Virus genome (UHGV): UHGV-0139590
Direction: 5' to 3' (one strand)
Length of the DNA stretch: 33,699 nucleotides
Origin: a virus
Shown here: one piece after another, positions 7,405-32,194 of the stretch
Layout of the letters: every line of letters begins with the position of its first letter
Position numbering within the stretch: the first letter of the stretch is position 1
Position numbers and translations under genes: made by a program
Notes under the pieces: model-generated
What the model saw: the letters and a program-made list of their open reading frames with translations, nothing else
Told to the model about the DNA's origin: nothing
Database searches by the model: none

Positions 7405-7416
7405 TGCAGTTATAGT

Positions 7417-7457: not shown

Positions 7458-7490
7458 CTTGCCTTCCCGGGCAGGAAACCCCTCAACGTC

Positions 7491-7510
7491 CAAAGTACAG
7501 ACTCAATAAC
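7491..7510 (+). promoter_or_regulatory. Conserved promoter-like box, copy 1 (CAAAGTACAGACTCAATAAC)
   Basis: Matches boxes at 12045, 12443, 20413 and partly 25250. Located about 35 nt upstream of the tail-fibre operon start. Confidence 0.4.
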
Positions 7511-7544
7511 ATCCGATCGATGAATCAATCAACAGGAGTTGAAA

Positions 7545-8003
7545 ATGTCGGAAGTTATTTCTTATGCGTCAGCCACTGGCGCGCTCTATAAAGCACAACT
7601 GCTGGATTACTACTACACACGCCGCGCGGATTCAGCCATCGGTCTGGGTAAACGCTTCCAGATGATGAAAGCCTATTGGGGTAAGTCGAATCTGGTTAAG
7701 CAAAATCCGACTGGTGGCTGGACCATTGACGATATCCCTACCAACTTCACAAACGCCAATTTGCTGGGCAAGTTTGCCGAGTGCGATCTGATCTGTACCC
7801 GCCAGGGCGCAACCATCACCGTTAACGTAGTGCTGCCGGAAAGTAAGCTGCCTGCTAACGCCGTGTATGACTTCAATACCCTGACGCTGGTTGATGCTGA
7901 TGGCGTCGCTTTTGCGGTTCTCTGCGCGCAGCAGGACAGCATCTACAAAGGCAAGATTTACAGCATCCTTCTGACCATCGAACAGAAAGGTAGCGGCGCA
8001 TGA
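7545..8003 (+). CDS. Small tail-fibre-operon protein (152 aa), function unknown
   Basis: ATG 7545 with AGGAG 6 nt upstream (an in-frame TTG at 7539 is less likely). Stop overlaps the next start (ATGA). Confidence 0.6.
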   Translation: MSEVISYASATGALYKAQLLDYYYTRRADSAIGLGKRFQMMKAYWGKSNLVKQNPTGGWTIDDIPTNFTNANLLGKFAECDLICTRQGATITVNVVLPESKLPANAVYDFNTLTLVDADGVAFAVLCAQQDSIYKGKIYSILLTIEQKGSGA

Positions 8004-10096
8004 GTGAGACAATTAGCGGGGTATCCATCCTGAGCGCGGAAACCAAGCGCGCGCTGGTGGCCGACGTTCAGTTTTTTGAAACCTATACGTCCGCCGCCTT
8101 TAACCGCAAGATGCGCGGCATTGTTAAACCTGGTTTTTACGCCGGATTTGATGCCGTGCTGGCTGGCGGGCTTAAAATCAACATCACGTCGGCAAACGAA
8201 TCAGGAAAGCGCGGCGTAGCCTCCGTGGACGTGGGCGAATATCAGATTTCCGTCCAGCAGGTTGAAGATGTCGGCTTTACACTGCCAGCGGGCGCAACCA
8301 CGCGCGTGGTGCTGGAAGCCAACTATCAGAATGGCGTGAAAACAAACCAGGTTGATTCGAACTCCGGCATTCAGGCGGCGCGACTCTTCCTGGCAGATGT
8401 AAGCGTGGCGCTGGCCGGTAATCAGCTGGAGCTATGCCGCTTTACCGTGCCTGCCGGTACGGTAAATTTAACCCAGGCTATGCTGAGCAAGCAAAATCGC
8501 CCGGATAAATCCATCGGCATTGAGCTGAGCAACGACGCTGAAGGCAGTACCACCGAGGGCGATGCTTACAAAGCCGCCACCATCGCAGCACTTAAACGCG
8601 CACTGGCTCTTTCGGTACAGGCGCGGGGTGAGTTGCCCGATACTGCCAATCTTAACAAATACGGCCCTACGCCAGATCGTGTCGGTCAGTGGAGCAAGTC
8701 AACGGCAACCGGCGCGACCATCGTCAATGGCTACCCGGAAAATGACGCTATCGGGGTTGTTGAGGTGTCTAAAGCCGGTGCCTCGAATGGGACCCAGCGA
8801 TTCACTCTGGTAAATGGCAATGTTTATACCCGCTCACTGACCGCCGCATGGAATGGCGTGGATGGGCCGTGGGGTGCTTGGAATGCGCCGTATGAAGAAG
8901 CCCCATTCCCTGATGTATGGATTCCATTAAATGACAGCCTGACTATGCTTGCCGGTTTCGGCCCATATGACCGCATTACTTTTGGAGATCAATATGCCGA
9001 GCTGCCAACCCGTAGTGTAAAACTGACCCGCGCAACGACGGCAACGTATATCGACAAATCCGGTGTGCTACAGGTTGCAGACATCAACGAGCCGCGTTTC
9101 GAGAAAGAGGGGTTGCTGATTGAAGGGCAGAGCACCAATTTGCTCAGATGGTCATCACCAGTACAGACTTCAGGCACATTTCGAAATAGTCCAAATGTAG
9201 GAATTTCTTTCTTACCCGCTGGCGGTGTTGAGTTAACAAAAGAGGCGAGCACTGGATTTTGGTTCGAACAAAACACAGGGGCTACAGACTATGATCCTGC
9301 TAATTCTGCGGCATTATCTGTCAACCTGAAATTTAAGGACGGTTTGGACGTAAGGCTGCAACTTCTTCGTTATTCAAGCGAAGGCGATGTCGGCGTTGCG
9401 TCTATCTCCGCAGTCAACGGTCGTAATACATTATCTATACCGGTGGTCGGCGGCACAGTTTTGCAGCGTTTAGGTCTGCGCATCACAGTGGGTGATACTG
9501 TTCCAATTGGGGAGGTGGTGATTGTTGATCGTATGCAAATTGAGCCTCAGGCGATCGCTACTTCGTACATCCCAACAAACGGATCACCAGTAACCCGCGC
9601 GGCTGACAATTGCACCCTACCACGCTCAGGAAATGACAACTATTACGGTGAGTTTTCCTATAGCGTTGAGGTGCATGCTAACGGTTTAACTCAAACAAGT
9701 TCAGACGCAAATGACCGTAGACATATTCTCTCTATATTCCCTTCATCTACTGAATGGGTCATGAGCTACATGGAGCCATCAGCAGGCTCAACGGGTAAAG
9801 TGCGCCAGACCTATGGCCCCGCGACTTATATCCAAAGCTCAAAAGCAATAGATGATGGGAAAACGCATCTTGTGGCGTTCACAACGAACTTGATTAAAAA
9901 TGCCCTTACAGTGGATGGCAGCGAGGTCGCTATTGGGACACAAGTCAGACCGGTTCCAGGCTCAGTTTCTGCTATTAACCAACTTATTGTTTTGGGTGCA
10001 ACTTCCTCACCCACGCGCATGTTAAACGGCCACCTTCGCAATCTTCGCATCTGGCACAAAACGTTAACTCCTAATCAAATCAAAGGGCTCCGCTAA
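8000..10096 (+). CDS. Tail fibre protein with C-terminal LamG-like (concanavalin-type lectin) domain (698 aa)
   Basis: C-terminus LNGHLRNLRIWHKTLTPNQIKGLR fits the Laminin_G_3 pattern common in phage fibres. The central block (PFPDVWIPLNDSL...TATYIDKSGVLQVADINEPRFEKEGLLIEGQSTNLL) is shared with the downstream paralogue. Confidence 0.75.
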   Translation: MSETISGVSILSAETKRALVADVQFFETYTSAAFNRKMRGIVKPGFYAGFDAVLAGGLKINITSANESGKRGVASVDVGEYQISVQQVEDVGFTLPAGATTRVVLEANYQNGVKTNQVDSNSGIQAARLFLADVSVALAGNQLELCRFTVPAGTVNLTQAMLSKQNRPDKSIGIELSNDAEGSTTEGDAYKAATIAALKRALALSVQARGELPDTANLNKYGPTPDRVGQWSKSTATGATIVNGYPENDAIGVVEVSKAGASNGTQRFTLVNGNVYTRSLTAAWNGVDGPWGAWNAPYEEAPFPDVWIPLNDSLTMLAGFGPYDRITFGDQYAELPTRSVKLTRATTATYIDKSGVLQVADINEPRFEKEGLLIEGQSTNLLRWSSPVQTSGTFRNSPNVGISFLPAGGVELTKEASTGFWFEQNTGATDYDPANSAALSVNLKFKDGLDVRLQLLRYSSEGDVGVASISAVNGRNTLSIPVVGGTVLQRLGLRITVGDTVPIGEVVIVDRMQIEPQAIATSYIPTNGSPVTRAADNCTLPRSGNDNYYGEFSYSVEVHANGLTQTSSDANDRRHILSIFPSSTEWVMSYMEPSAGSTGKVRQTYGPATYIQSSKAIDDGKTHLVAFTTNLIKNALTVDGSEVAIGTQVRPVPGSVSAINQLIVLGATSSPTRMLNGHLRNLRIWHKTLTPNQIKGLR

Positions 10097-10380
10097 TGAG
10101 AGATCTGTATTTGCGTTTTGCTGATGCCGAAGAAATGCACCAGCAATTGACCGATTTTGGCTTCCAGGCGGATGAAGATCAGGGCGTTATTTATCACCCT
10201 GAGATCTGCCTTGATGTCGTTGGCGTTATCAGCACGGTGACAGGTGAAGACGAAGCGGCTGTATATGCCACCGAACCCGGTTTTCACGTAAACATTCGTG
10301 TGATTAATGATCAGTTGGATTTGTCGGGCTTAAGTGAATTCGCCGTTTACCCGAAGACCCCAGCTCGCGTGTGGGCGTAA
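10096..10380 (+). CDS. Small fibre-associated protein (94 aa), paralogue of 11703..11990
   Basis: ATG overlaps the fibre stop (TAATG). MRDLYLRFADAEEM...YHPEICLDVVGV...PARVWA closely parallels the second copy. Confidence 0.6.
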   Translation: MRDLYLRFADAEEMHQQLTDFGFQADEDQGVIYHPEICLDVVGVISTVTGEDEAAVYATEPGFHVNIRVINDQLDLSGLSEFAVYPKTPARVWA

Positions 10381-10389
10381 GGAAATATC

Positions 10390-11703
10390 ATGGCATTAAG
10401 AAAAGACTTTATTGAAATGAAAGAAGATGCTCCGTTCCCAGATGTCTGGGTGCCGCTGAGCGACAGTCTACGCTTGCTGGCGGGGTTGGCTCCCTTCGAT
10501 AAACAGATGGCCCACGACCCAGCATTGGAATTGACTTCAAAATCGGTGACGCTTACCCGCGCTTCTACGGCAACTTATATTGATAAAGCTGGTGTACTGA
10601 AAACAGCGGCGATAAACGAGCCTCGCTTTGAAAAAGAGGGTTTATTGATTGAGGGGCAGAGCACTAACCTCTTAATCAATAGCGAAGATCCAACAAAGTG
10701 GGGGACGTTTACTCTTTTAGACATTTCAACCCTTAGGGATGGCACGACACAGGCAGCGACGGTTAAAGGCACGGTAAATGCGACCAATGACACCAATAAT
10801 ATTTGGTTATGTGGTAGCCCCAGCCTTCCTGCCGTGGTGGGTGATGTATGGACCTTATCCGCACGTTTCAAGGCCTCCTCACATAGAGTTCGCCTCCGGT
10901 TTACCATCGACGGCGTGCAATTAGGTGACGTATTTTTCGACGGTGTTACAGGTGAGCAAGTCAGGGGTTTGTCCGGCGGCGTTACATACACTACAAAGCG
11001 GGGAAGCGACGGGTATATTTACGTTAGCGCCACAATCACAACGTCAATAGCGGGGTTGTTAGTCGGACAATTTTGGTTTAATGATGACGCACCAATTCCC
11101 GCTGGTTCGTTTGTCTGCCTGCAAACCATCCAGTTGGAAAAAAACGCAGTAGCAACCAGTTATATTCCAACGGGATCAGCCGCTGTTACGCGAGCTACTG
11201 ATGTCTGCACGCTTCAACGTTACGGTAACGACAACTACTTCGGACCCGTCACTTTTTCCGCAGAGATTCACCTTAACGGGAAAACTAACGCAGACGGTGC
11301 AATGACTTCTCGTCGAGGGATCATATCGGCTAAACCGTCATCAACAGAGTCTTACACGCTGATGTTGGCTACATCCGGCGCAAATGCAGGGAAACCGTGC
11401 TTTGGATACGGCAATAGTGATTTCGTCTACGGCTCTACGGGTCTTGATGATGGGAAAGGTCATGTTGTAGTCGCCAGATTTGACGGCTCTGACAAGTATC
11501 TGTGTTCAGATGGGGTAATGTCAGTAGGTCGCGCAGCAACTAAACCGGCATCAGGAAATGTGGATGCCACGAACCAAAATATCCAGATCGGTTACGGTGC
11601 TGCTTATGTTACGCCGGGGCACTCAGTGCTAAACGGCCACATTAGAAACATTCGTATCTGGCATCGCGCGCTTAATGATCGCCAAGTTAAAGGAATTCGC
11701 TGA
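10390..11703 (+). CDS. Second tail-fibre cassette with LamG-like C-terminus (437 aa), lacks the N-terminal ~290 aa of the first fibre
   Basis: ATG 10390 with AAGGAAAT upstream. Begins at the conserved block shared with the 698-aa fibre. C-terminus LNGHIRNIRIWHRALNDRQVKGIR. Confidence 0.7.
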   Translation: MALRKDFIEMKEDAPFPDVWVPLSDSLRLLAGLAPFDKQMAHDPALELTSKSVTLTRASTATYIDKAGVLKTAAINEPRFEKEGLLIEGQSTNLLINSEDPTKWGTFTLLDISTLRDGTTQAATVKGTVNATNDTNNIWLCGSPSLPAVVGDVWTLSARFKASSHRVRLRFTIDGVQLGDVFFDGVTGEQVRGLSGGVTYTTKRGSDGYIYVSATITTSIAGLLVGQFWFNDDAPIPAGSFVCLQTIQLEKNAVATSYIPTGSAAVTRATDVCTLQRYGNDNYFGPVTFSAEIHLNGKTNADGAMTSRRGIISAKPSSTESYTLMLATSGANAGKPCFGYGNSDFVYGSTGLDDGKGHVVVARFDGSDKYLCSDGVMSVGRAATKPASGNVDATNQNIQIGYGAAYVTPGHSVLNGHIRNIRIWHRALNDRQVKGIR

Positions 11704-11990
11704 TGAGAGATTTATATTTACGCTTCGCAGATGCGGACGAAATGCAGATGGTATTACTGGCCTTGGGTTTTCAGAAAGAAGAAGAGCAAGCCGGTCTTTA
11801 TCACCCTGATATCTGCCTCGATGTGGTGGGCGTTATGACCGAGCCTCAAAACCCGGAAGAAGAGAACCCTGATCTGATTGAGTTACCTGGCTATCATGCT
11901 AATGTGCGTGTCATTGACGATCAGCTGGATATTTCAGCGCTGGATGACTTCACCATCCACCCGGAAACACCGTCGCGCGTCTGGGCGTGA
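11703..11990 (+). CDS. Small fibre-associated protein (95 aa), paralogue of 10096..10380
   Basis: ATG overlaps the upstream stop (TGATG). Same sequence pattern as the first copy. Confidence 0.6.
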   Translation: MRDLYLRFADADEMQMVLLALGFQKEEEQAGLYHPDICLDVVGVMTEPQNPEEENPDLIELPGYHANVRVIDDQLDISALDDFTIHPETPSRVWA

Positions 11991-12015
11991 TGCACAGTTC
12001 TCCCCACATTAACAA

Positions 12016-12037
12016 AGCGCCTCCGGGCGCTTTTTTT
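12016..12037 (+). terminator. Rho-independent terminator (AGCGCC-TCCG-GGCGCT + T7)
   Basis: Perfect 6-bp stem, 4-nt loop, 7 T. An identical copy lies at 12414-12435. Confidence 0.65.
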
Positions 12038-12044
12038 GTACCCA

Positions 12045-12064
12045 CAAAACACAGACGCAATACC
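12045..12064 (+). promoter_or_regulatory. Conserved promoter-like box, copy 2 (CAAAACACAGACGCAATACC)
   Basis: Directly follows the terminator; about 25-40 nt upstream of the small membrane-protein gene. Confidence 0.4.
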
Positions 12065-12087
12065 TTCGGAGCGGGAAATTAAACACA

Positions 12088-12390
12088 ATGATGGGAGTAG
12101 CCATGAAGGATTTAACGCCGATTTATCACGCGATAGTCGCGGTTTTTGTGCAGTGCCTGATCGGTTTTATAACCGGCGCGTGGGGATTTGGTGGGGCGAT
12201 AGGCTGCGTGTGGTTTATTGCCCGCGAACATACCCAGGCGGAGTATCGCTGGATAGCTCGCTTCGGGAACGGTAAGCGCGCCAACATGCCGTGGTGGGGT
12301 GGTTTTGATTACAGGGTATGGAATATCGCCAGTGCCTTTGATTTTCAGGTGCCGGTGCTGGCCTGCATTATCGTTTACACCCTCACCTGA
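12088..12390 (+). CDS. Small membrane protein, possible holin/antiholin (95-100 aa)
   Basis: Three in-frame ATGs (12088, 12091, 12103). GGGAG sits 5 nt before ATG 12103 (MKDLTPIY...). Hydrophobic segments IVAVFVQCLIGFITGAWGFGGAIG and VLACIIVYTL. Bracketed by identical terminators. Confidence 0.5.
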   Translation: MMGVAMKDLTPIYHAIVAVFVQCLIGFITGAWGFGGAIGCVWFIAREHTQAEYRWIARFGNGKRANMPWWGGFDYRVWNIASAFDFQVPVLACIIVYTLT

Positions 12391-12413
12391 TCCCTTTATT
12401 CATATTTTATGTA

Positions 12414-12435
12414 AGCGCCTCCGGGCGCTTTTTTT
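12414..12435 (+). terminator. Rho-independent terminator, identical to 12016-12037
   Basis: AGCGCCTCCGGGCGCT + T7. Confidence 0.65.
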
Positions 12436-12442
12436 ATGCCCT

Positions 12443-12462
12443 CAAAACACAGACTCCATACC
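12443..12462 (+). promoter_or_regulatory. Conserved promoter-like box, copy 3 (CAAAACACAGACTCCATACC)
   Basis: About 38 nt upstream of the GTG start of the holin-like gene. Confidence 0.4.
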
Positions 12463-12499
12463 ATCCAGGCTCGAAGGGAAATTGAGAAAAGGTGGGAAT

Positions 12500-12814
12500 G
12501 TGTTCGAGTTGGAAACAAGTTTGATCCATGTCCTCGCCCTATCCCTTCTCAGTGGCTCCGGCGTGTTCCTGCATGGGGTGCGTGACGGAAGGATTAAGGG
12601 AAATTTCCTGAATTTTATCACTGAGTGGGTCCTGGCAGTGCTGGCTGGGCTGACAGCGTATTACGTCGCCCAGCATAAAGAATGGGAGCAAAGCCTGATG
12701 TATCTGGCGGTGCTGGTGGCGAGTAATAACGGGCGAGAAGTAACAAGTGCGCTTAAGGACCGATTTATTGCTGCAATGCAGTTTATGTTCGGTCCGAAAG
12801 GAGGTGAAAAATGA
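12500..12814 (+). CDS. Holin, lambda S-like class I (104 aa)
   Basis: GTG 12500 with AAGGTG 6 nt upstream. The longer ORF-track version (12299) runs across the terminator and promoter box, so is not used. Three hydrophobic segments and a KDRF...AAMQ C-terminus parallel lambda S. Confidence 0.55.
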   Translation: MFELETSLIHVLALSLLSGSGVFLHGVRDGRIKGNFLNFITEWVLAVLAGLTAYYVAQHKEWEQSLMYLAVLVASNNGREVTSALKDRFIAAMQFMFGPKGGEK

Positions 12815-13266
12815 TGAGTAATTTGCAGGAGTATTGCTTTTACGGAATGGCCGCGCTGGCCGTCTTTGATCGCTTCATCCTGAAACGTAAAAAAATCAGA
12901 CTGGTGGAGTGTGGTGATGCCGTGGTGCGGGGGCAGGCGCTGGCATTCCCGCTGCGGTTTAACGTCTCTTGCTCCCGCCTGACTGGCGCAATGGTCGAGT
13001 ACAGCCTGCGTGACTCCAAAAACCCGACGGCGGTTATCACCGGTAAGACGCGGACGCTGGATTTATCAGTAAAAGGGATGAACGAAGAGTATTTGCTGAT
13101 TGACCAACGCTACCTGGAGGCCGGGACGTGGTTTCTATCGGTCCGTGTCACTCATGGCAACAGCCGCATGAATCCGTTATACCGAATTTTCCCGGTTCAG
13201 GAATCAATTACGCACAATTACAGCGTCACAAAAGATGAGCAGGGGGTTTTCAGTGTCAGCAACTAA
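12811..13266 (+). CDS. Hypothetical protein (151 aa) with N-terminal hydrophobic segment
   Basis: ATG 12811 with strong SD AGGAGGTG; overlaps the holin stop. Confidence 0.55.
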   Translation: MMSNLQEYCFYGMAALAVFDRFILKRKKIRLVECGDAVVRGQALAFPLRFNVSCSRLTGAMVEYSLRDSKNPTAVITGKTRTLDLSVKGMNEEYLLIDQRYLEAGTWFLSVRVTHGNSRMNPLYRIFPVQESITHNYSVTKDEQGVFSVSN

Positions 13267-13879
13267 CGGCTATGTAACCCTTAACTTTGACGAACTCAAT
13301 GTTAAAGGACTGGAAAAGCTTAAAAAAGCAGTCAGTAAGGCCGGTTATGAAGTCGTGAAGGTCACACCAGCAGGCCAGGCACGGCGCAAAGACGGTATTC
13401 CAACAAAAACCTTTGAGCTGAAAGGTATCGACGAGCAGGTAATGGTTGTTCAGGTCAATAACACTGGCGACATTTCCGGCATAAAGCTCAACGGCAAAAA
13501 CTCACCGTACACGCCTGTTAAGACTATGGCCGAGCTGGGAAAAGCACTGGCCGATTTGTTTAAGAAAGGCTCGACGGCGTTCCAAAAGGCCCTGGCGCGA
13601 AAGCTGGCCCGCGCGGCTAAAAAGGACCTCGATAAGGACAAGCCAAACACCAGCAAGGGTGTGAAATCCGGCGTCCAGATGCTCAGTGATGCCCGCGCTC
13701 GCCGTGATGCGCAGAAAGAGGCGATTGAGGCCGTTAATGAAAAACTCACCGCCCTGAAAACAGAGCAGGATATGACGCAGAAGGAGCACGGCAACCTGCA
13801 AAACGAGCTAAATCTGGAAGTGGCGAAAACAACTCAACTCCAGGACCTTATTGCTAAAGCGAAAGGCGGCAACGAATGA
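13235..13879 (+). CDS. Hypothetical coiled-coil protein (214 aa; start may be GTG 13253)
   Basis: Overlaps the upstream gene by 32 nt at ATG 13235. Alternative GTG 13253 has AGGGGG 7 nt upstream. Stop overlaps the next start (ATGA). Size is similar to P1 Hdf as recalled from memory (not verified). Confidence 0.5.
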   Translation: MSRGFSVSATNGYVTLNFDELNVKGLEKLKKAVSKAGYEVVKVTPAGQARRKDGIPTKTFELKGIDEQVMVVQVNNTGDISGIKLNGKNSPYTPVKTMAELGKALADLFKKGSTAFQKALARKLARAAKKDLDKDKPNTSKGVKSGVQMLSDARARRDAQKEAIEAVNEKLTALKTEQDMTQKEHGNLQNELNLEVAKTTQLQDLIAKAKGGNE

Positions 13880-16895: not shown

Positions 16896-16901
16896 AACAA
16901 G

Positions 16902-16924
16902 GCCCCGGAAACGGGGCTTTTTTT
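16902..16924 (+). terminator. Rho-independent terminator (GCCCCG-GAAA-CGGGGC + T7)
   Basis: Seven nt after the stop of the 112-aa gene; perfect stem and T-run. Confidence 0.7.
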
Positions 16925-16925
16925 G

Positions 16926-18135
16926 GTTCGCCGGTCGAAATCACAGCGTTTTATCCGTAATAGATTCAACGTTTATAAGGATGAACGGTTATTGACATCT
17001 TCCCGCCCTAAAGGATGGGGATTCCTACAGCCAGACGGCGATGCCCCGCCGCGAGAATGTTCTTTGCGGCGTTTACGTCGCGGTCGTGAGCGGTTCCGCA
17101 CTCACAACAAGTCCAGTCTCTTATTCGCAAGCCTGCTCTACCTTTCGGACTGTTAGCGGAGATAGCCCCGCAACACGAACAAGCCTGGGTGGAATATTTT
17201 TCGTTAACGACTTCGAACACTACCGACCGCGCAATCGCTTTGTATTTCAGTTGTGTTTTGAGCATGAACCAGCCAGCGTCCAGAACGCTTTTAGCCATTT
17301 TGGTTTTAACCAGTTTCTTACTGCTCACGTCGCCTACGAATATTGCCGCATGGCTGTTTACCAGTGCCGTGCTGTACTTATGCAGTGCATCTTTGCGGCG
17401 GTTCTTAATTTTGGCGTGAATGGCGCGTACGCGGGCTTTTTTGTTCGCCCTCTGCGCCTTGCCTAATGCGGGTTGCAGGTCACGATAAAACCTACCTGCA
17501 ACCAGTGGATCACCCTCTGACGGGGTGGCGTAGTCCTTTAATCCCAGATCTATGCCGATAGCTGTTATTCCCGTTGTCGGGGTGGTTTCGACTTCTACGC
17601 AGACATTGAAATACCAGCGCCCCCGACTATCTTCTGAAAAGCTACCGGCGCGGAATTTATAACCCGCCAGTCCGTAGCTATCCCACACCTTAAAATAGTG
17701 GCCTGCGAACTTGACGCAGCCATTTTGCCATTGCGCCTGCTTCGATTTAAACGGCACCCAGCCCAGAGAACGGCGAGCTCCGCCACTGACACGCCAGCGC
17801 AGACGCGAGCGTTTAAACTGCTTCCGCGCTTTGCCGTGGTCTGCGATCACTTCCTGCACCGTGGCGCTGCCGATGATATAGCCGCGCTCTTTCTGAATAC
17901 CTGCCGTCATCTTCTGAACGTCGAACGCCGACAGCCAGCGGGGAATTTGCGCACCAAAAGCGCCAGCGTTGCTGTATGCCTCGCTGGTTATCTCGTTTGC
18001 CAGATTAAAGACCTGATTGACCTCAAAGGCCATCTGCCGCAAAACGGCGGCGTGGCGGTCTTTAACCCGGACGGATAATGTTTTGATGCGCGTATTCATG
18101 CTCATTACTCCCGCCCGCAGGCGGGAGCCTCCGGG
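16926..18135 (-). mobile_element. IS200/IS605-family insertion element carrying only tnpB (IS1341-like); boundaries approximate
   Basis: Single TnpB ORF, with a perfect 8-bp stem / 4-nt loop hairpin (18108-18127) immediately upstream of its start, as in subterminal left-end hairpins of this family. No tnpA and no terminal inverted repeats, as expected. Confidence 0.6.
17008..18105 (-). CDS. tnpB: TnpB (IS605 OrfB-family RuvC-like, RNA-guided nuclease family), 365 aa
   Basis: RuvC-like motifs GIDLGLKDYATPSEG and HDRDVNAAKNIL; zinc-finger cysteines CSCCG...CCECG near the C-terminus. ATG 18105 with GGGAG upstream. Confidence 0.8.
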   Translation of the reverse strand: MSMNTRIKTLSVRVKDRHAAVLRQMAFEVNQVFNLANEITSEAYSNAGAFGAQIPRWLSAFDVQKMTAGIQKERGYIIGSATVQEVIADHGKARKQFKRSRLRWRVSGGARRSLGWVPFKSKQAQWQNGCVKFAGHYFKVWDSYGLAGYKFRAGSFSEDSRGRWYFNVCVEVETTPTTGITAIGIDLGLKDYATPSEGDPLVAGRFYRDLQPALGKAQRANKKARVRAIHAKIKNRRKDALHKYSTALVNSHAAIFVGDVSSKKLVKTKMAKSVLDAGWFMLKTQLKYKAIARSVVFEVVNEKYSTQACSCCGAISANSPKGRAGLRIRDWTCCECGTAHDRDVNAAKNILAAGHRRLAVGIPIL

Positions 18136-18666
18136 TTAGATCACAAACCAGTCTTCGGCCTGCTCGTCATTCAGCGAAGGGAAAAATTCCACCTCACCTC
18201 CATTAGAATCGAGCAAAAATAAATCATCATTTTCAATGAGAACGTAGCTCGCCGGAACCCAGCTAAGACGCCCTATGAATCGACCAGTACGCGCTGAAAA
18301 ACGCAGTGCTAATTCATACTTCACGTTGCGCCCCCGAAATATTCCAGTAGTTAATCTGAGGGCGATTTGTCGCAGTAAACCGGGCAGAAAAGATACAAGG
18401 TGCGTCGGGTAGTTGAGAACGGGCTTCGGATTCGCTTGCAGCAATAACCGTGTGATAGCGGCGTTTCTGGCAGGAATAGAAGCGCCATATAAATTCAGAG
18501 TGAATCTGGGTAGGGATTGCCAGCATGAGCTGATCTCCGATAACAGTTTAAAACTATCACCACCTGGAGTTTCCACGCTCTGATTGGTGGTGACGCTGAC
18601 GGGGGTGGAAATACCGGCGTTATCGGGAACCGGCCAGCCCGAGAGCTGCCCCGCCAGCGCCACCAT
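18136..18666 (-). CDS. Hypothetical protein (176 aa), weak call
   Basis: Longest ORF in a region with several overlapping ORFs on both strands. No clear SD. Ends exactly at the IS left boundary. No HUH motif, so not TnpA. Confidence 0.3.
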   Translation of the reverse strand: MVALAGQLSGWPVPDNAGISTPVSVTTNQSVETPGGDSFKLLSEISSCWQSLPRFTLNLYGASIPARNAAITRLLLQANPKPVLNYPTHLVSFLPGLLRQIALRLTTGIFRGRNVKYELALRFSARTGRFIGRLSWVPASYVLIENDDLFLLDSNGGEVEFFPSLNDEQAEDWFVI

Positions 18667-18718
18667 AATTTTGTGCGGATCTGTGCCGCTGAATATGGGG
18701 GTACTGACTTACGACAAT

Positions 18719-18741
18719 AAAAAAAGACGCCTGGCGCGTCT
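18719..18741 (-). terminator. Hairpin (AGACGC-CTGGC-GCGTCT) with T7 on the minus strand
   Basis: On the minus strand the stem is followed by TTTTTTT; on the plus strand it is preceded by A7. Confidence 0.4.
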
Positions 18742-18994
18742 GTTGTCGCCGATAACAATTTGCCGGGTTTCCACGCCCGTGCAGACCTTTTTCGTCTGCG
18801 AGAGCAAATGTAACCACCCGGAATGCAGTTTGCAACCACTTTGATTACATATCGGATGACAACAACATTGCCATACTGTCATACAATCGCACTGTAATAC
18901 AATAACAATTAGATTTACTGTTATTTTTCTTCGGTCAGTTGATTGCACATAGTTCATATCATCCCGTTACCGAAAACAGTTAGAGGGCAGGGCA

Positions 18995-20374
18995 TTGAAT
19001 GAATTAACGAATGCCATTGATAACACCGCTGGCGTGGATAGCCTGGTGGCACTGGTAGCATCACTGCATTTCAGCCAGACCGGGTTAGGCCGGACATCTT
19101 TTGTCGTGACCAGCAAAGGAGATGAGGTCAAAACCAGTTTTAAGGTGATCGATGCCCGAAGCCTGGTTATCTCCAACAATCTGGACGGCACCATTAACCC
19201 CAAATTCCCCGCCGAGTTGCAACCGCGCGACCGCACCCGCATGGCGAGCAAAATTCAGGTGAGCAAAATAGCGGGCAACCTGCGACCGGCCCAGCTGAGC
19301 GACTCCGGGCTTAGTAGTCACGGCGCGCCGATTGTCGGCCTGGATAACGTTGTCGAATCCGGTAACGGGCGCTCAATGGGTATTTTGCGCGCCTACGAAC
19401 AGGGGCAGGCGGACAGCTACCGGCTGTACCTGATTGAGCATGCTGTCGACTACGGGCTGAAAGCGTCGGACATTGAGAAGATGGATATGCCGGTGCTAGT
19501 GCGCGAGCGCATAACTGACGTTGACCGCGCGAAGTTTGCCCGCGATTCTAACCAGTCAGATTTACAGGAAATGGCCGCGAGTGAAAAAGCGTTTGTAGAC
19601 GCTGAAATGCTCGACGAGCGGCTCATGGCGATGTTTGCGCCATCAGATGAAGGCAATCTGTTAGCCCGCACCAACGACGCGTTTATTCGGGCATTCATGA
19701 AGGAAATTGGCGACACGGCCTCAGCTGGCCTTGTAACCACTGACGGGCGACCAACCAAGCAGCTGATTGACCGAATCCAGAATGCTATTTTTGCCAAAGC
19801 TTACAAAGATGAGCGTTTAGTAAAGCTGGTGGCAGAGGAGCCGGACCCGGATATGCGTAATATCCTGACCGCACTCAATACCGCAGCGAGCGATTTTGCC
19901 AAGATGCAGATGCTATCCGGCGACGTTCACAAGCAGGCGGTTGACGGGCTGGTGAGCGGCGTGGAGGAGGTGAGCGGGCTGGATAAACAGGCCATCGCCG
20001 CGCTACAGGATGCAATAAACCTCGTCCGCCAGGCGAAGGACAGCGGTCAGGCAATCGAAGAGGCGATCGCCCAGCAGGGATTGTTTGAGGAGACGAGCAA
20101 AGAGGCCGAGGCGCTGGCGCTCTTTATCGTGGCGAACAACCGTAGCGCAAAACGTATCGGCGCAGCATTCAAGAAGCTGGCGCAGAAAATTAACGCAGAG
20201 CTAACCCACCAGCAGCAGGCGTTGGGGGATATGTTTGGCGGGGGTGATTTATTGCTGGTGGACGTGCTTAGTGCGGTTTCACGCGAGATTGAAGAGGAGT
20301 TCGGCGAAGGGAAAGGGCTGAATTTTGCGATGTTTGAATCCGCAGCGGGTGCGGGGGATGTAGCCGTAAACTAA
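18995..20374 (+). CDS. ParB/Srx-like N-terminal domain protein (459 aa), TTG start
   Basis: TTG 18995 is the first start-like codon after an in-frame TAG at 18950, with GAGGG 7 nt upstream. Motif PIVGLDNVVESGNGRSMGILRAYEQG parallels the ParB box (for example P1 ParB ...ILDGSRRRASAIL). No adjacent parA. Confidence 0.6.
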   Translation: MNELTNAIDNTAGVDSLVALVASLHFSQTGLGRTSFVVTSKGDEVKTSFKVIDARSLVISNNLDGTINPKFPAELQPRDRTRMASKIQVSKIAGNLRPAQLSDSGLSSHGAPIVGLDNVVESGNGRSMGILRAYEQGQADSYRLYLIEHAVDYGLKASDIEKMDMPVLVRERITDVDRAKFARDSNQSDLQEMAASEKAFVDAEMLDERLMAMFAPSDEGNLLARTNDAFIRAFMKEIGDTASAGLVTTDGRPTKQLIDRIQNAIFAKAYKDERLVKLVAEEPDPDMRNILTALNTAASDFAKMQMLSGDVHKQAVDGLVSGVEEVSGLDKQAIAALQDAINLVRQAKDSGQAIEEAIAQQGLFEETSKEAEALALFIVANNRSAKRIGAAFKKLAQKINAELTHQQQALGDMFGGGDLLLVDVLSAVSREIEEEFGEGKGLNFAMFESAAGAGDVAVN

Positions 20375-20380
20375 TTGAAA

Positions 20381-20402
20381 GCCCGCTTAATGCGGGCTTT
20401 TT
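20381..20402 (+). terminator. Rho-independent terminator (GCCCGC-TTAAT-GCGGGC + T5)
   Basis: Seven nt after the stop of the ParB-like gene. Confidence 0.65.
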
Positions 20403-20412
20403 CTGGTCTGTG

Positions 20413-20432
20413 CTAAAACACAAACTGATTAC
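20413..20432 (+). promoter_or_regulatory. Conserved promoter-like box, copy 4 (CTAAAACACAAACTGATTAC)
   Basis: Follows a terminator and precedes the hydrolase gene by about 33 nt, the same arrangement as copies 2 and 3. Confidence 0.35.
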
Positions 20433-20464
20433 GGTGAATTCTTCTTTCAACTGAGGAATTCACT

Positions 20465-20956
20465 ATGAGTCAAACCGCAGAACAGCGCTGGGTAACAGAA
20501 GCGCGTAAAAATCTCCACGTCCGCGAAATCAAAGGTCCGCAGCATTGCCCGGAAATTCTGCAATACTGGCGCGACATCAAACGTGGCGGCATCAAAGACG
20601 ATGAAACACCCTGGTGCGCCGCTTTCGTCGGTGCCATGCTGGAGCGCGTCGGTATCCAGTCAACCCGCTTTGAATCGGCCCGTAGCTACCTGAACTGGGG
20701 AACCGAGCTTCGCGAGCCAGTGCCAGGATGTATCGTTGTATTCACCCGCGATGGCGGCGGTCATGTCGGCTTTGTTGTCGGCCAGAACGAGAATCGCGAT
20801 CTGCTGGTGCTGGGCGGCAATCAGTCCGATGCCGTCAATGTCCGCGCCTTCCCACGCGCCCGCGTTACCGGCTATCGCTGGCCTGCCGGTGAAGCACTCC
20901 CGGGTGATGTTCGCCTGCCTGTTACCACTGCGCAGAAGTCCACCAGCGAAGCGTGA
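20465..20956 (+). CDS. CHAP / NlpC-P60-like peptidoglycan hydrolase (163 aa), candidate endolysin
   Basis: ATG 20465 with GAGGAA upstream. Putative catalytic Cys in DDETPWCAAFVGA and His in DGGGHVGFVVG, typical of CHAP-type amidase/peptidases. Confidence 0.7.
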   Translation: MSQTAEQRWVTEARKNLHVREIKGPQHCPEILQYWRDIKRGGIKDDETPWCAAFVGAMLERVGIQSTRFESARSYLNWGTELREPVPGCIVVFTRDGGGHVGFVVGQNENRDLLVLGGNQSDAVNVRAFPRARVTGYRWPAGEALPGDVRLPVTTAQKSTSEA

Positions 20957-20987
20957 TCCACATGCCCTGGCGTCTGCCGGGGCCTTA

Positions 20988-21911
20988 CTACTGATATCCA
21001 CGAAAACCTTTCGGGATCTTGCCGTAATCAACACCTGCGAAGGATTCCCGGAAAACGGTGTCATTCTTGCCATTCCCGGTAGTTTTAAACGCGCTCAGCA
21101 CTTTGAGCATCATGCTCTTGAGCTGGTTAATCTCATTGCCCTGGCGCTGGTTGTAGCGTTCCTCTGCGGCATTGAGCTGGCCCTGAATACGCGTTGCCGT
21201 GATAAGCGCATTCCACTCGGCAAGTGTTTTCCCCTGATAAGCCTGATCCGGTTTATCCACAACCTGCGACGGCTCAGGCGCACTATTTGGATTTTTTTCT
21301 CTTTCAGAAGAAGCAGTAACTATCTCCTTTTGTGCCTCATCTTGCGCCCCGGCTCCCCGCTTCGTTTTGCGCCCCCCTTCTTTAATGACAATCAGAGCTG
21401 ACGCGGCTTTCAGAGCAAACACCATTACTTTTTGTTTCAGGCGGCTGACGGTCTTGCGATAGAGGAAAATGGCGAGGCAAAACAGCATGGCTGGACGGGT
21501 GAGGGTGCGGCGGGCGGTTTCCGTTCCAATTGTGCCTTGGGGAATTTCGGAATTAAAAATCGCGCGTCCGGCATTGCTGGTGGTGAAGCGATCGAGGGTA
21601 GCAATGGACACTTCCGCTTCCTGGGCGATGGTCTTGCGGCTGGCGTAGCAAACGCCGGTATGTGACGGGTTAACTTTGTTGGCAATGCACCCGGCAATAA
21701 TTTTTCCGGTACGGCTGACGAGTGATGCAGGAAGGTAGGCGAGGGCGTTGCTTAATTTGTAGCCTGTAGGGAAAGCGCGTTGCAGTTCGAGCCATAGCGC
21801 GGCGTTGTCCATTTCAAGATAAGCGGAAAACTCAGGCAGGCCGGGGAATAGTGTGGGTTTTATTGCACTATCTGGTAAAGAATTAGGCTGGATTTGGTCA
21901 CAGTTTTGCAT
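20988..21911 (-). CDS. HTH-domain protein (307 aa), possible regulator or replication-associated protein
   Basis: ATG 21911 with AGGAAAT upstream. N-terminal region ...TGVCYASRKTIAQEAEVSIATLDRF... resembles winged-helix HTH modules. Convergent with the hydrolase gene. Confidence 0.5.
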   Translation of the reverse strand: MQNCDQIQPNSLPDSAIKPTLFPGLPEFSAYLEMDNAALWLELQRAFPTGYKLSNALAYLPASLVSRTGKIIAGCIANKVNPSHTGVCYASRKTIAQEAEVSIATLDRFTTSNAGRAIFNSEIPQGTIGTETARRTLTRPAMLFCLAIFLYRKTVSRLKQKVMVFALKAASALIVIKEGGRKTKRGAGAQDEAQKEIVTASSEREKNPNSAPEPSQVVDKPDQAYQGKTLAEWNALITATRIQGQLNAAEERYNQRQGNEINQLKSMMLKVLSAFKTTGNGKNDTVFRESFAGVDYGKIPKGFRGYQ

Positions 21912-22210
21912 TATTATTTCCTAAGTTGTTTGGGGCCTTTATGGATGAGCTGCCCCGCCTGCGCCCGCCAAGGCGCTGGTTGTTGGTTGAGAGTGGTATC
22001 TCGAAGTTCTTTGCCAGGTCGCCAAACCAATGGGCATCGAACAAAATCTTTAGAAAGCTGGTGGATCGCCATCCTCCGGCTTTTTTCTTTTTTATCCTGT
22101 CATAGCGTCATTCCTTGTTGTTTTTCAGGCACGACAAAACCGCACCGATAATTCGGCGCTGAGTGATTTTTACTCAGGGGACTGACACACGAAAACGCGC
22201 ATGAAAAAAC

Positions 22211-22239
22211 TTGAGTGCGGGGAATAGTGCTTGTAAACT
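22211..22239 (+). promoter_or_regulatory. Candidate sigma70 promoter (TTGAGT-17-TAAACT)
   Basis: Good -35 and 17-nt spacer, acceptable -10. No protein-coding ORF with an SD downstream before the terminator at 22333. Confidence 0.3.
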
Positions 22240-22246
22240 GACCTTA

Positions 22247-22356
22247 CAGCACTTTTCCAGTCTATTGCGTGTTGTCAGCATTGAGTGAGTGCGAATCACG
22301 TCAGCGCATAAGGGCTTAAAGGCCCGGCAAAAGCCACCTGCCAGGGTGGTTTTTTG
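22247..22356 (+). ncRNA. Candidate small RNA (~110 nt) between promoter-like hexamers and an intrinsic terminator
   Basis: Promoter-like element at 22211-22239 and terminator at 22333-22356 (CCACC-TGCCA-GGTGG + T6). Intervening sequence has no ATG-initiated ORF. Confidence 0.2.
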
Positions 22357-22408
22357 CTTTCTGGCGTTTAACATACGCCAAAAATTGTTACCCAGGAAGA
22401 TCCAGGCC

Positions 22409-22449
22409 AAAAAAAGGATCACGATCCAAGCTGGTGGCAATCGCGATCC
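22409..22449 (-). terminator. Minus-strand hairpin (GGATCACGA ... TCGCGATCC) followed by T7, downstream of the protease/scaffold gene
   Basis: Imperfect 9-bp stem with a long loop; the A7 on the plus strand becomes a T-run on the minus strand. Lies 60 nt after the gene end at 22509. Confidence 0.35.
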
Positions 22450-22508
22450 TAACCACGTCATGACCCTATAGCAATACTGTTTTTATGAACAGCACCTTAG
22501 AATCACTA

Positions 22509-23534
22509 TCACTTTCGATGTGGCCTGAGCCACAGCGCGGGCGTGTCATCGTCGGCGTGGCGTACTTTCGTGCCTACTGGCGCGGGCTTATGAGCCGATC
22601 TCCCGCCGTCCAGCGGCAGCGTTGCGCCTGCCGAGCCGACAGCAGATTCCAGCATGGCCGCAAGCACCATTGCGTCGTCTTCGGTTTCCATTCGGATCAG
22701 CGCCTGCTTCTGCTCCTTACTCAGGAACACCGGCAGCTCCGACACGGCATTGCGCAGGATTTTTCGACGTTTCGCCGCAGAATCCCCCTGGCTTTCCAGC
22801 ATCATGTTAACGTCGCGCAGGCGCTGCTCCACTTCCATTAAGCGCCCCTGGCTGGCCCATAGCTGGCTTTCCAGCTGGCCGGTACGCTCCACGGACTCCA
22901 GCATTGCCTGGTTGGTTCGCATTTTTTCGAAGTGGTGGCACAGGTCCGTCGCGGCGTTATCGCTGTAACCGGCGTTGCGCAGCGCGTTGTGCATTTGCTC
23001 GCCCCGGGTGTCGGCAGACTCCAGCATCATGCTGCTTTTATCCAGGCTGACATAGTTCGGAATGGTCACGTAGTCCATGCCGTGATAATTGTTCACCAGC
23101 GAGCGGATCGCCCCGTCTTTGCCACCCGTAACCCATGACCAGCCGCCCGCGTTAGAGGCGATCATGCCTTTCACAATCTGGCCCGGGTCGGTATCCAGTA
23201 TTTCCTGGGTGTGAGTGACAATGCCGTTATCGTCCACGTCGATTGCGACGGTGCGGTTAGACGGTACATTGGTCAGCGTTACCGGCTTGCCGTCCACCAG
23301 CACCACACTGACCTCCGGCAGGGTGAGCTTGCCGTCCTTCTCATACTGCAAGGCGCGGCGTCCGTGGCCGTAGTAGCCAAACATTTCACCCAGTTTTATA
23401 TGCTCGCGCACTTCTGGATCGTTGAACGTGGCGCGCACGGTCTGAATGATGTAGTTGCGGTCATTCTGCGGCGTGTGGCGTCGAATTTTGTCGATAAGGG
23501 AAAAGCGATCGGTAACGGTTTGAAGTGTTTTCAT
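22509..23534 (-). CDS. Putative head maturation protease / scaffold (341 aa)
   Basis: ATG 23534 with AAGAGAG upstream. Immediately downstream of the portal gene on the same strand. C-terminal half is coiled-coil-like, as in scaffolds. Protease assignment is by position only. Confidence 0.5.
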   Translation of the reverse strand: MKTLQTVTDRFSLIDKIRRHTPQNDRNYIIQTVRATFNDPEVREHIKLGEMFGYYGHGRRALQYEKDGKLTLPEVSVVLVDGKPVTLTNVPSNRTVAIDVDDNGIVTHTQEILDTDPGQIVKGMIASNAGGWSWVTGGKDGAIRSLVNNYHGMDYVTIPNYVSLDKSSMMLESADTRGEQMHNALRNAGYSDNAATDLCHHFEKMRTNQAMLESVERTGQLESQLWASQGRLMEVEQRLRDVNMMLESQGDSAAKRRKILRNAVSELPVFLSKEQKQALIRMETEDDAMVLAAMLESAVGSAGATLPLDGGRSAHKPAPVGTKVRHADDDTPALWLRPHRK

Positions 23535-23544
23535 GATGACTCTC

Positions 23545-25230
23545 TTAATTTTGGCTCATGACAAATTTGGCGAAGTTGAGTAGCTGGGTACGGCTCCAGT
23601 GCTCAGGGTTTTCATGACGATCTGGCGCGGATTCATGCATCATGTCCTCGTCGTCAAATTCGTGCTCAGCGGATACGGCTTTAAACTCGGTCAGCATCTT
23701 TTCCAGCATCTGCGGGTCCATCTTGAGCTGGTCACAGAACAGGTAGCGCATGAAGGTATCGCTGCCCGCCAGCTTCGGACTCTGCTGTATCTGGTCGAGG
23801 ATCTGGGTGATGATGGAAATGAAGTTGGCGCGGGCGTCCTGATCGCGGGCCTCTTCTGCCATCAGTGCGGTATTCATGGAGTTGAATTGCACGGTGAAAG
23901 GGCGCTGGTTCGGCAGGTAAATCTTGCCGTGCTTATACGCCAGGTGGATATCCACAAAGCGATAGATAGCGTCTGCCACGGCTTGTCGCAGCCACTGCGC
24001 GCGCTGCGCCGCATGAATGGCAGTTTGCGCCCAGCCGCCTTCCCCCAGACCGCCAGACATTTGATCTGCCCACCCCAACATCGTTGAATCAATGCCCAGG
24101 CTTGAGCACAGCTGGCGCAGGTGAAACATCACATCTTCAATGCCGGTGATATCTGCCGGGATGTACTGCGTATCCACGGTGACGCCGTTCTTGCCGTCGC
24201 CCATCAGCGGGATCAGGTGGTTCAGTACGGTCGGCATGGTGCTGGCCTGGACGGACCGGCGCGCCAGCGTCTCTGCGTTGCGTTTCAGTGATTGCGCTAC
24301 GCTGCGCGTGTAGTTGGCGGCGTTAACCGGGTCCAGTGTGCCGGTGGTCAGTGCGATCAGGCGGTCGATTTTGGCGGCGTTATAGCGCGTGGCTTTCAGG
24401 GCATTCAGCGCCCCGCACAGGTTCATAAATGGCTCGTAGGAGTGCTCCAGGAAGCTGGTGCCGTAATTCTGCGTCTCCATCAGATTCTGATCCTGAACGT
24501 CATTCATCAGGGTGTAGCCGCGCGTGCCGGTGGTCATCGGGATCAGGTTACGGCTCGGGGTCCAGTACGGGTTTTTGACCGGCACGATAAACCACGGCTC
24601 CGCCAGGGTCCGTTGCAGGTTGTCCGGGGTCAGCAGGTAATCGCCGGTATAGCCCGCCAGCTGCCCGCCCCGGTGGAATTCCTGGATGAAGTGGGGAAGG
24701 GTGTAATAGCTGGACTCGATGTTAACGATCCCCCGCCCGGGCTCGCCGTATGGCCGGGTAAAGCCCACGCCGAAAATCGACATAAGCAACCCCCATCCGG
24801 GCATCCCGTTATTAATCATTTCCCCCAGGTCTTCCATCAGCTCATTGCAGCGGGTGACGGCCTCTTTGTCTGCCGGGTTCTTTGCCACCAGCGAGAACGC
24901 CAGCCCGCTTCTTTTGCTGGGTGACAGGGCGTGTGCAATGTGGATATTGAGCGCGCTGGATACCGTGGCGCTTTTAGACATTTCCTCCAGGATCGGATAT
25001 TTGGCGAGGCGGTCCAGGGGCAGCGTCAGCCCAATGCCGAGGCTGTCCGCTTCCGTCGTCAGTTCACCCGGCGCATCGCCAGGCTTACCGACCAGCGTAG
25101 CCAGCCCGGACCGTGACACGACGTTATGCCCACTACTCAAAGGCAGATGGGAAACGGGCGTTTTGGGCGCGCTGGTGAACAGCTTTTTCAGGGCCGTGAT
25201 CGCCCCGTTAGTCGAGTTTCTGTTTGCCAT
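23545..25230 (-). CDS. Portal protein (about 561 aa)
   Basis: Large ORF directly upstream of the protease/scaffold gene and divergent from the DarB-like gene, matching P1-like prt-pro gene order. ATG 25230 is preferred over the ORF-track GTG 25263. Identification by size and context, not by a verified motif. Confidence 0.6.
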   Translation of the reverse strand: MANRNSTNGAITALKKLFTSAPKTPVSHLPLSSGHNVVSRSGLATLVGKPGDAPGELTTEADSLGIGLTLPLDRLAKYPILEEMSKSATVSSALNIHIAHALSPSKRSGLAFSLVAKNPADKEAVTRCNELMEDLGEMINNGMPGWGLLMSIFGVGFTRPYGEPGRGIVNIESSYYTLPHFIQEFHRGGQLAGYTGDYLLTPDNLQRTLAEPWFIVPVKNPYWTPSRNLIPMTTGTRGYTLMNDVQDQNLMETQNYGTSFLEHSYEPFMNLCGALNALKATRYNAAKIDRLIALTTGTLDPVNAANYTRSVAQSLKRNAETLARRSVQASTMPTVLNHLIPLMGDGKNGVTVDTQYIPADITGIEDVMFHLRQLCSSLGIDSTMLGWADQMSGGLGEGGWAQTAIHAAQRAQWLRQAVADAIYRFVDIHLAYKHGKIYLPNQRPFTVQFNSMNTALMAEEARDQDARANFISIITQILDQIQQSPKLAGSDTFMRYLFCDQLKMDPQMLEKMLTEFKAVSAEHEFDDEDMMHESAPDRHENPEHWSRTQLLNFAKFVMSQN

Positions 25231-25249
25231 TTTCTGCAAATACCTTTGG

Positions 25250-25269
25250 AAAATACAGACCACTTAGAA
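25250..25269 (+). promoter_or_regulatory. Partial copy of the conserved promoter-like box (AAAATACAGACCACTTAGAA)
   Basis: Core AAAA-N-ACAGAC matches the other four copies; the downstream half is divergent. About 50 nt upstream of the DarB-like start. Confidence 0.25.
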
Positions 25270-25317
25270 TTGCGCTGATTTTATCGGGTCTATGTTTTGC
25301 AGACACAAGGTTAAAAA

Positions 25318-32160: not shown

Positions 32161-32194
32161 CACAGGAGCGCCCGGGAAACCGGGCGAAAGACTT

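Follow-up and report, generated by a model that had tools for sequence, protein, structure and literature searches.

Why does one and the same sequence of about 20 bp recur in front of successive gene groups of a phage, and what could it do there? This question is raised by UHGV virus genome UHGV-0139590, of which we analyzed a stretch of 33,699 nt (hereafter the window, read on one strand, 5' to 3'). A sequence-only reading of this DNA had listed five copies of the box, the fifth being partial, and had suggested that they are phage-specific late promoters, operated by a phage activator in analogy to those of P1-like phages. Based on our analysis, each copy can be regarded, with a probability of roughly 85%, as a P1-type late promoter that would depend on the activator Lpa and that carries a variant, non-palindromic box. 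The proposal is supported by the P1-like gene order and gene families, the promoter geometry, the map positions, and an Lpa-family gene encoded on a contig identical to the window; that the window sites are used late and need the activator is what we infer from this analogy.

All five quoted strings were found at their coordinates, and the repeated element is real, but its outline and its number of copies had to be revised. Toward its 3' side, the 20-bp box is made up of the 4-bp spacer plus the first bases of a -10-like hexamer; thus, the statement that no sigma70 -35/-10 pair is recognizable holds for the -35 only. The composite element is an 11-nt box, AAA[A/G]YAYARAC, followed after exactly 4 nt by TAnnnT, and is present at six sites in the window, the gap between prt and darB hosting two divergent full copies instead of one partial copy. 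The minus-strand copy of this pair (25298-25278, CAAAACATAGAC CCGA TAAAAT), which faces prt/pro (portal gene), had been missed. In 1000 dinucleotide shuffles, 0.001 occurrences of the full pattern AAA[AG]YAYARAC-N4-TANNNT were expected compared with the six seen, although the significance of these figures is overstated, since the pattern was drawn up with the sites already known; independent tests such as the Leclercia scan below are free of that flaw. The 11-nt box alone is expected 0.22 times in the window by the same shuffling, and TANNNT at the fixed offset has a probability of P = 0.0069 per site. A 20-mer consensus allowing up to three mismatches recovered the copies at 7491, 12045, and 12443 (0 expected), and the core AAAAYACAGAC with at most one mismatch occurred seven times (0.77 expected). 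The six sites and the terminators associated with them are as follows.

7415..7460, plus strand: intrinsic terminator of the baseplate/gp16 operon, 12-bp stem and U-tract (-18.9 kcal/mol, z = -5.2), the box lying 32 nt downstream
7492..7512, plus strand: candidate late promoter of the R-like tail-fiber operon; box AAAGTACAGAC (7492-7502), spacer TCAA, -10 TAACAT (7507-7512); ATG at 7545
12014..12040, plus strand: intrinsic terminator after the tail-fiber operon, left part of a 53-nt terminator-plus-promoter cassette
12046..12066, plus strand: candidate late promoter of a gene for a membrane protein of 95 amino acids (ATG at 12103); AAAACACAGAC GCAA TACCTT
12413..12437, plus strand: intrinsic terminator after the gene of the 95-residue protein, second cassette copy
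12444..12464, plus strand: candidate late promoter of the lydA-lydB-hdf-darA-ddrA operon (GTG at 12500), at the position of P1 LPdar; AAAACACAGAC TCCA TACCAT
20377..20406, plus strand: intrinsic terminator after the ddrB-like gene, hairpin usable on both strands (-17.4 kcal/mol, z = -5.3)
20415..20435, plus strand: candidate late promoter of the lysozyme gene (ATG at 20465), at the position of P1 LPlyz; AAAACACAAAC TGAT TACGGT
25250..25270, plus strand: candidate late promoter of darB (ATG at 25318); AAAATACAGAC CACT TAGAAT
25278..25298, minus strand: candidate late promoter of prt-pro (ATG at 25230), at the position of P1 LPpro; AAAACATAGAC CCGA TAAAAT

All six sites are intergenic and oriented toward the next gene, with 29-47 nt between the end of the -10 hexamer and the start codon (the portal start at 25230 was taken from the gene call in L018/L019). 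Hairpin and U-tract terminators, located at 7415-7449, 12014-12033, 12413-12430, and 20377-20401, were confirmed upstream of four of the six sites, where three had been claimed, and a fifth one precedes a degenerate copy at 16934-16954. The copies at 12046 and 12444 are located within a 53-nt direct repeat (12015-12067 / 12413-12465, 89% identical) comprising terminator and box, and therefore count as one event; the common part of the other four copies is restricted to box and -10, their flanks not being alike. A consensus scan of positions 7000-26000 revealed no sigma70 -35/-10 pair at any box site, the five sigma70-like pairs of this region all lying elsewhere, and a TG extension is absent at the box sites. 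Within the box no conserved pairing was observed, and Rfam gave no match at the box sites. In the 87-bp prt/darB gap, the -10 hexamers of the two divergent promoters are only 7 bp apart, and the gap displays dyad symmetry about position 25274 (29/49 positions complementary).

This architecture can be compared directly with that of P1, which possesses 11 late promoters with a 9-bp inverted repeat as Lpa-binding site (PMC10695390). The activator binds DNA in a sequence-specific manner and is believed to operate via SspA, a host protein associated with RNA polymerase (PMC1891329). The late promoters in the P1 RefSeq record (LPmat, LPpro, LPlyz, LPdar, LPs, LPsit, and LPpac) consist of a 9-bp "-22 region", 4 bp, and a -10, lack a -35, and align as AAGT(G/T)ACTT-N4-TAnnAT. 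The nine bases at the P1 "-22" position read AACACAGAC in the window and are devoid of dyad symmetry.

An independent examination was provided by a position weight matrix (PWM), built from the six window sites and run over a complete Leclercia plasmid of 93,544 bp, 85.9% of which carries a coding annotation, in line with the motif search suggested by the sequence-only reading. The 12 best matches (>= 13.4 bits; 0.5 expected from shuffles), representing 11 distinct sites, are all found in the 14% intergenic DNA, are co-oriented with the next gene, and precede late-type genes. The outcome named as refuting by the sequence-only reading, a motif at chance level or unrelated to operon starts, was not observed. 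Nine of them end 29-48 nt before the annotated start of the next gene, two overlapping matches end 127 and 134 nt upstream of mat, and one weak match without a -10 ends 6 nt upstream of sit. Besides mat, the genes served comprise a bplB-like and a pmgB-like gene, R, the small membrane protein gene, lydA, lyz, prt, darB, and pacA, and a weaker site was found upstream of ddrB. The mat, bplB, pmgB, and pacA sites represent independent confirmation, since the stretch of the plasmid that is orthologous to the training region does not include them. Metagenome scaffold ERZ28623851 scaffold_136 from ENA (87,280 bp), which is 100% identical to the window over 22640-33699 and probably represents the same genome, contains additional sites on both sides of the window, upstream of bplB-, pmgB-, and 21-like genes on its left and upstream of pacA on its right.

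Conservation among relatives follows the same outline. In an alignment of the region upstream of lyz from seven genomes (window, Leclercia, two IMG/VR contigs, Citrobacter, Pantoea, and D6), the A's and C of the box, the A and T of the -10, and the ribosome-binding region are invariant; spacer, terminator sequence, and flanks vary. The 4-bp distance between box and hexamer is found in 6/6 window sites and in all Leclercia, D6, Pantoea, and Serratia sites examined. The 7492 site, whose map counterpart is P1 LPs, is kept in Leclercia, L003, and L004; the 12046 site retained box and -10 in the same three with changes in spacer and flanks, and both divergent prt/darB copies are retained in Leclercia and Citrobacter.

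Gene order and families of the window are those of P1, reversed relative to the P1 record: sit, pmgA, bplA, and gp16 are followed by R and the tail fibers, then by lydA, lydB, hdf, darA, and ddrA, a ddrB-like gene, and lyz; the right part contains pro and prt on the opposite strand and subsequently darB, encoding 2280 amino acids. The sites precede morphogenesis, lysis, and packaging operons rather than early or immunity genes, and are represented in the window by those of R, lydA/dar, lyz, prt/pro, darB, and the small membrane protein gene. On the level of families, the gene downstream of the 7492 site was assigned to phrog_2032 and PF26881 (Phage_P1_tail_fiber_R), and the operon at 12500 encodes a holin (phrog_1527), LydB (phrog_1898), and DarA (phrog_1926). 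The membrane protein gene at 12103 belongs to phrog_1443; its assignment as LydC was rejected, the product not being a LydC homologue. The window represents a distant relative of phage P1, most likely a P1/D6-like phage-plasmid. On the nucleotide level there is hardly any similarity to P1; closest are the records of two ~90-kb plasmids from Leclercia adecarboxylata (80-83% identity), and more distant relatives (~68%) are plasmids of Citrobacter, Pantoea, Enterobacter, and Serratia. A megablast of positions 7000-13000 against the phage collection gave no match and its distant mode tail-fiber fragments only; a scan of genome contigs with LydB yielded no relative.

The gene for the putative activator, lpa, is located outside the window. 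Scaffold_136 encodes, 6.4 kb past the right end of the window, a 133-residue protein of family PF25716 (BPP1_LPA) that also matches phrog_1704 "Lpa-like transcriptional activator" (3.3e-29); it is followed by a ParM cassette and then by box-preceded pacA. The Leclercia orthologue is 35% identical to D6 Lpa (6e-20) and 27.6% identical to P1 Lpa (2e-4), both over 93% of the length (tblastn). No box was found before lpa itself in scaffold_136, which fits an early gene. NCBIfam holds no model for Lpa, and a PDB sequence search with an Lpa profile returned noise only. The boxes at the same five upstream regions were compared across the relatives.

P1: ACAAGTGACTT
Serratia: AAAACTCACTT
D6: AAATCACAnAC
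Enterobacter and Pantoea: AAAT(T/C)ACA(G/A)AC
Citrobacter, Leclercia, and window: AAA(A/G)YAYARAC

In all of these genomes a -10-like hexamer stands 4 nt after the box; it reads TAnnnT, or CAnnnT in the case of a few sites of D6 and Enterobacter. In the alignment of the Lpa proteins, P1 and Serratia, whose boxes end in ...ACTT, have (I/V)Y(I/L)RLK, whereas all genomes with a CAnAC box have VTN(V/I)(V/I)R at that same place. In an AlphaFold model of Lpa based on a shallow alignment (mean predicted local distance difference test score 57.5; residues 1-50 at 72-84, forming three helices), this box-correlated segment falls in predicted helix 3 of the N-terminal three-helix unit. A Foldseek search of the model against the PDB gave no significant match, its top list including some winged-helix proteins over ~45-50 residues. 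That helix 3 serves as recognition helix is put forward as a hypothesis, because the model is poor and no significant Foldseek match was obtained.

By analogy with P1, a mechanism can be sketched in which the terminators end the preceding unit and insulate each late unit. The sigma70 holoenzyme alone would not be able to use such weak, -35-less promoters with a TAnnnT -10. Lpa, made from an early promoter, would bind the 11-nt box at about -22, the last 9 nt of the box taking the place of the P1 "-22 region", and box-bound Lpa would recruit RNA polymerase together with host SspA. Transcription would start ~7 nt after the hexamer, leading to leaders of ~22-40 nt. Since the upstream terminators insulate each unit, expression of the tail-fiber, lysis/Dar, lysozyme, portal/protease, and DarB genes would be held until Lpa is present. 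Binding of Lpa to the box, late timing, the role of SspA, and the start sites are thereby what we infer for the window from P1. The prt and darB promoters are likely to compete for polymerase because of the 7-bp distance between their hexamers.

Which other explanations could account for the same pattern? Ordinary sigma70 promoters, independent of any activator and functioning by the -10 alone or by weak upstream contacts, would render the box incidental, e.g., an A-rich DNA-shape element. The TAnnnT at every site, two good hexamers (TAGAAT and TAAAAT), and a sigma70-like pair elsewhere in the window (32926-32954) fit such promoters, but a -35, a TG extension, and a sigma70 pair are missing at every site and most hexamers are poor. 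Moreover, across genomes with diverged flanks the box is kept to the same extent as the -10, and it changes with the Lpa type, so that we consider this explanation improbable. Slightly less credit still is given to the box being an operator for a repressor (C1-like immunity repressor or other) placed over constitutive promoters. P1 does carry C1 operators at many promoters, and its mat gene combines an operator with a late promoter; however, the C1 operators of P1 are found at early and immunity genes including lpa, whereas the box studied here precedes structural, lysis, and packaging operons and not lpa, and its spacing of exactly 4 bp from the -10 is that of P1 late promoters. The consensus of the P1 C1 operator, which we take to be the 17-bp asymmetric ATTGCTCTAATAAATTT, had no match in the window with up to three mismatches, although the repressor of this clade may use another operator.

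To an equally small degree we credit the possibility that the copies are a repeated terminator-promoter cassette or module-boundary sequence, i.e., a recombination hotspot with little regulatory meaning. The 53-nt direct repeat described above and an inserted C4/Ash/TnpB module, found exactly at late-promoter gaps in two relatives, argue for it, whereas the likeness of the other four copies in box and -10 but not in flanks, the retention of both parts at orthologous sites while neighboring bases drift, and the constant orientation toward the next gene argue against it; as a secondary role, a boundary function is compatible with late promoters. Least probable of all is a signal on RNA level in read-through transcripts, e.g., a processing site, a leader element, or an antitermination site. 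Copies do lie between terminator and start codon, and P1 has been suspected of antitermination (PMC10695390), but the spacing between hexamer and start codon is not constant (29-47 nt in the window and as much as 127-134 nt in Leclercia), TAnnnT by contrast always lies 4 nt from the box, the box shows no conserved pairing, Rfam finds nothing at the sites, and divergent copies share one 87-bp gap. Taken together, the 4-bp phasing, the variable start distance, the maintenance of the box despite flank divergence, the restriction to late-type operons with none before lpa, and the co-variation with Lpa disfavor all four explanations relative to Lpa-dependent late promoters.

Several observations nevertheless weigh against this assignment. 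Two of the six copies are a single duplicated cassette, and some of the -10 hexamers are weak (TACCTT, TACGGT). The box resembles the AAGTNACTT of P1 only little and has no dyad symmetry, so that the binding mode may differ from that of P1. Identity to P1 Lpa amounts to no more than 22-25% in the Lpa alignment (27.6% by tblastn), the structural model of Lpa is of low confidence and without a significant PDB match, and timing, starts, and Lpa dependence all rest on homology.

A further-reaching idea, to which we give somewhat less than even odds, is that Lpa activators and -22 boxes have split up into three or more specificity classes within the P1 supercluster, the switch being made by helix 3 (VTNVVR vs YLRLK type). 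These classes may be a palindromic AAGTNACTT (P1), an intermediate AAAACTCACTT (Serratia plasmid), and an asymmetric AAA-N-CACA-N-AC (D6, Pantoea, and the window clade). If true, late transcription would be orthogonal between co-resident P1-like phage-plasmids; the "inverted repeat" of P1 would be incidental, dyad symmetry not being required and binding being oriented and probably monomeric; and the prt/darB gap would hold two late promoters in symmetric arrangement that exclude each other.

A ~2-kb insertion (16957-18940) splits the late-promoter region between ddrA and the ddrB-like gene, and the features in and around it are as follows.

16934..16954, plus strand: degenerate box copy after the ddrA terminator (16899-16920); AAATCACAGCG TTTT ATCCGT
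17008-18105, minus strand: transposase/TnpB-like gene within the insertion
18136-18666, minus strand: Ash-family-like open reading frame (ORF) of 176 amino acids within the insertion
18583-18670, minus strand: C4 antisense RNA (Rfam RF01695, 80.7 bits)
18942..18962, plus strand: tentatively, a possible weak late promoter of the ddrB-like gene (18995), the A-tract of the box being replaced; ATTGCACATAG TTCA TATCAT

The degenerate copy corresponds, as an ortholog, to the left half of the ddrB promoter of Leclercia, and the insertion separates it from ddrB. The site at 18942-18962 scored below the PWM threshold, and its TTCA-TATCAT-CCC part is identical to that of a site at L022 829-849. Part of the insertion (18082-18926, 845 bp) shares 95% identity with a module of GenBank record OP031081.1 (L024 1845-2689), which is located elsewhere, between bplB and pmgC, again right upstream of a late-promoter copy, and which carries a different TnpB (PF01385/PF07282).

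At the left end of the window, sit (tape-measure/transglycosylase) is split into ORFs of 509 and 1029 amino acids (window 1-3399, one ending at 268 and the next starting at 310), corresponding to L022 5338-6867 and 6909-9998, where relatives have one ORF of 1507-1564 amino acids; this could be due to a premature stop codon, a frameshift, misassembly, or recoding. An ORF at 23-268 is not called as a gene in the public collection. The tail-fiber region (8000-11990) comprises two tandem gene pairs, of 698 plus 94 and of 437 plus 95 amino acids, sharing repeats of 154, 116, and 37 nt at 73-81% identity (families D1, D2, and D10), which suggests a duplicated fiber-plus-chaperone cassette. A Cin-type invertible segment, present in P1, D6, and the Citrobacter and Enterobacter relatives, was not seen there. 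A box-like string at 9269, inside a tail-fiber gene, was rejected for lack of GAC and of a -10. Between lyz and pro, two minus-strand ORFs of 307 amino acids (20988-21911, without a PHROG match) and 95 amino acids (22174-22461) were detected, for neither of which a box-type promoter was found. A region at the right end (32926-32995) combines a sigma70-like promoter (32926-32954, TTGCTC-17 nt-TAGATT) with a subsequent GC-rich hairpin, AAAAAGCCCGGCATAAGCCGGGCTT, that reads as a minus-strand terminator; the region precedes a 58-residue ORF at 33056 and is kept in L013, L018, and L019. A weak PWM match at 32935-32955 was dropped, being better read as this sigma70 promoter. Outside the window but on the same contig, ~2.4-3.7 kb to the right, L019 12478-13799 encodes a protein of 431 amino acids with a weak match to the RNA polymerase alpha C-terminal domain (PF03118), present also in Leclercia (67900-69221). 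It is directly followed by a box-like site, AAAATAAAAAC-TCCT-TAGAAT (23 bits), then by ~1.2 kb without a called gene, and beyond the site by tRNA-Val and tRNA-Met (15582-15747).

In respect to its use, the model of box, 4 bp, and TAnnnT allows the annotation of late units from sequence in P1-like phage-plasmids of Leclercia, Citrobacter, Atlantibacter, Pantoea, and Enterobacter, a poorly studied branch. The paired divergence of box and Lpa helix 3 suggests natural orthogonal activator/promoter pairs, which would bear on the cross-talk of co-resident phage-plasmids and could serve as genetic parts, and the asymmetric box questions the mechanistic need for the dyad symmetry of the P1 box. No new kind of regulation is implied: this kind of element is already known from P1, the Lpa family is already in Pfam and PHROG, and D6, a published phage, contains boxes of this class. 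What appears not to have been annotated before is the non-palindromic box variant and the way it correlates with the Lpa sequence; a published late-promoter consensus of the D6 type or of phage-plasmids was not found in the searchable literature, a description in the D6 genome paper being possible.

Compared with P1, the window shares an element at about -22, the 4-bp spacer, a sigma70-type -10, and the lack of a -35. On a collinear map, its sites are found where P1 has LPs, LPdar, LPlyz, and LPpro, counterparts of LPpac and LPmat being present in relatives; as in P1, sites are often found right after a terminator, and an Lpa-family gene lies beside the pacA region. In contrast, the box of P1 is the palindrome AAGTNACTT and that of the window is AACACAGAC-like and asymmetric, with conservation reaching 2 nt further upstream as an A-tract. 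Furthermore, darB has a box-type promoter back to back with that of prt here, whereas P1 is annotated with a predicted sigma70 PdarB and with LPpro as the only late promoter of this gap. The P1-type pattern AAGTNACTT-N4-TANNNT with up to two mismatches gave two matches in the window (4.1 expected), neither at a promoter, and conversely the window box is not enriched in P1. One site of the window/D6 type was observed in P1 (L002 31571-31591, minus strand; AAATCACAAAG-TACA-TACCGT), 38 nt upstream of lydC, possibly by chance given two matches in 50 kb compared with 0.55 expected; GAAATCACA, at the left end of this site, is the complement of TGTGATTTC, a string beginning with base 2 of the start codon of lydC. 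The window gene in the matching position does not encode a LydC homologue.

The closer counterpart is D6, in which AAATCACAnAC-N4-(T/C)AnnnT stands before R, lydA, the hydrolase gene, prt, pmgB, ddrB, and darB; promoters are not annotated in its GenBank record. Among phages, D6 supplies the Lpa that best matches that of the window clade. Differences are found in the preference for T at box position 4, a more variable position 9, an Lpa only 35-37% identical, and lpa directly upstream of pacA, where the window clade has a ParM cassette in between. The D6-like Enterobacter plasmid pJBIWA008_2 has similar sites, with box class and geometry as in the window. The P1-like plasmid pJSRIV002_3 of Serratia sp. 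JSRIV002 shows the same geometry, map positions, and ParM-adjacent lpa; its box AAAACTCACTT, however, is intermediate, combining a window-like A-tract with a P1-like ...ACTT end, and its Lpa carries the P1-like segment IYIRLK.

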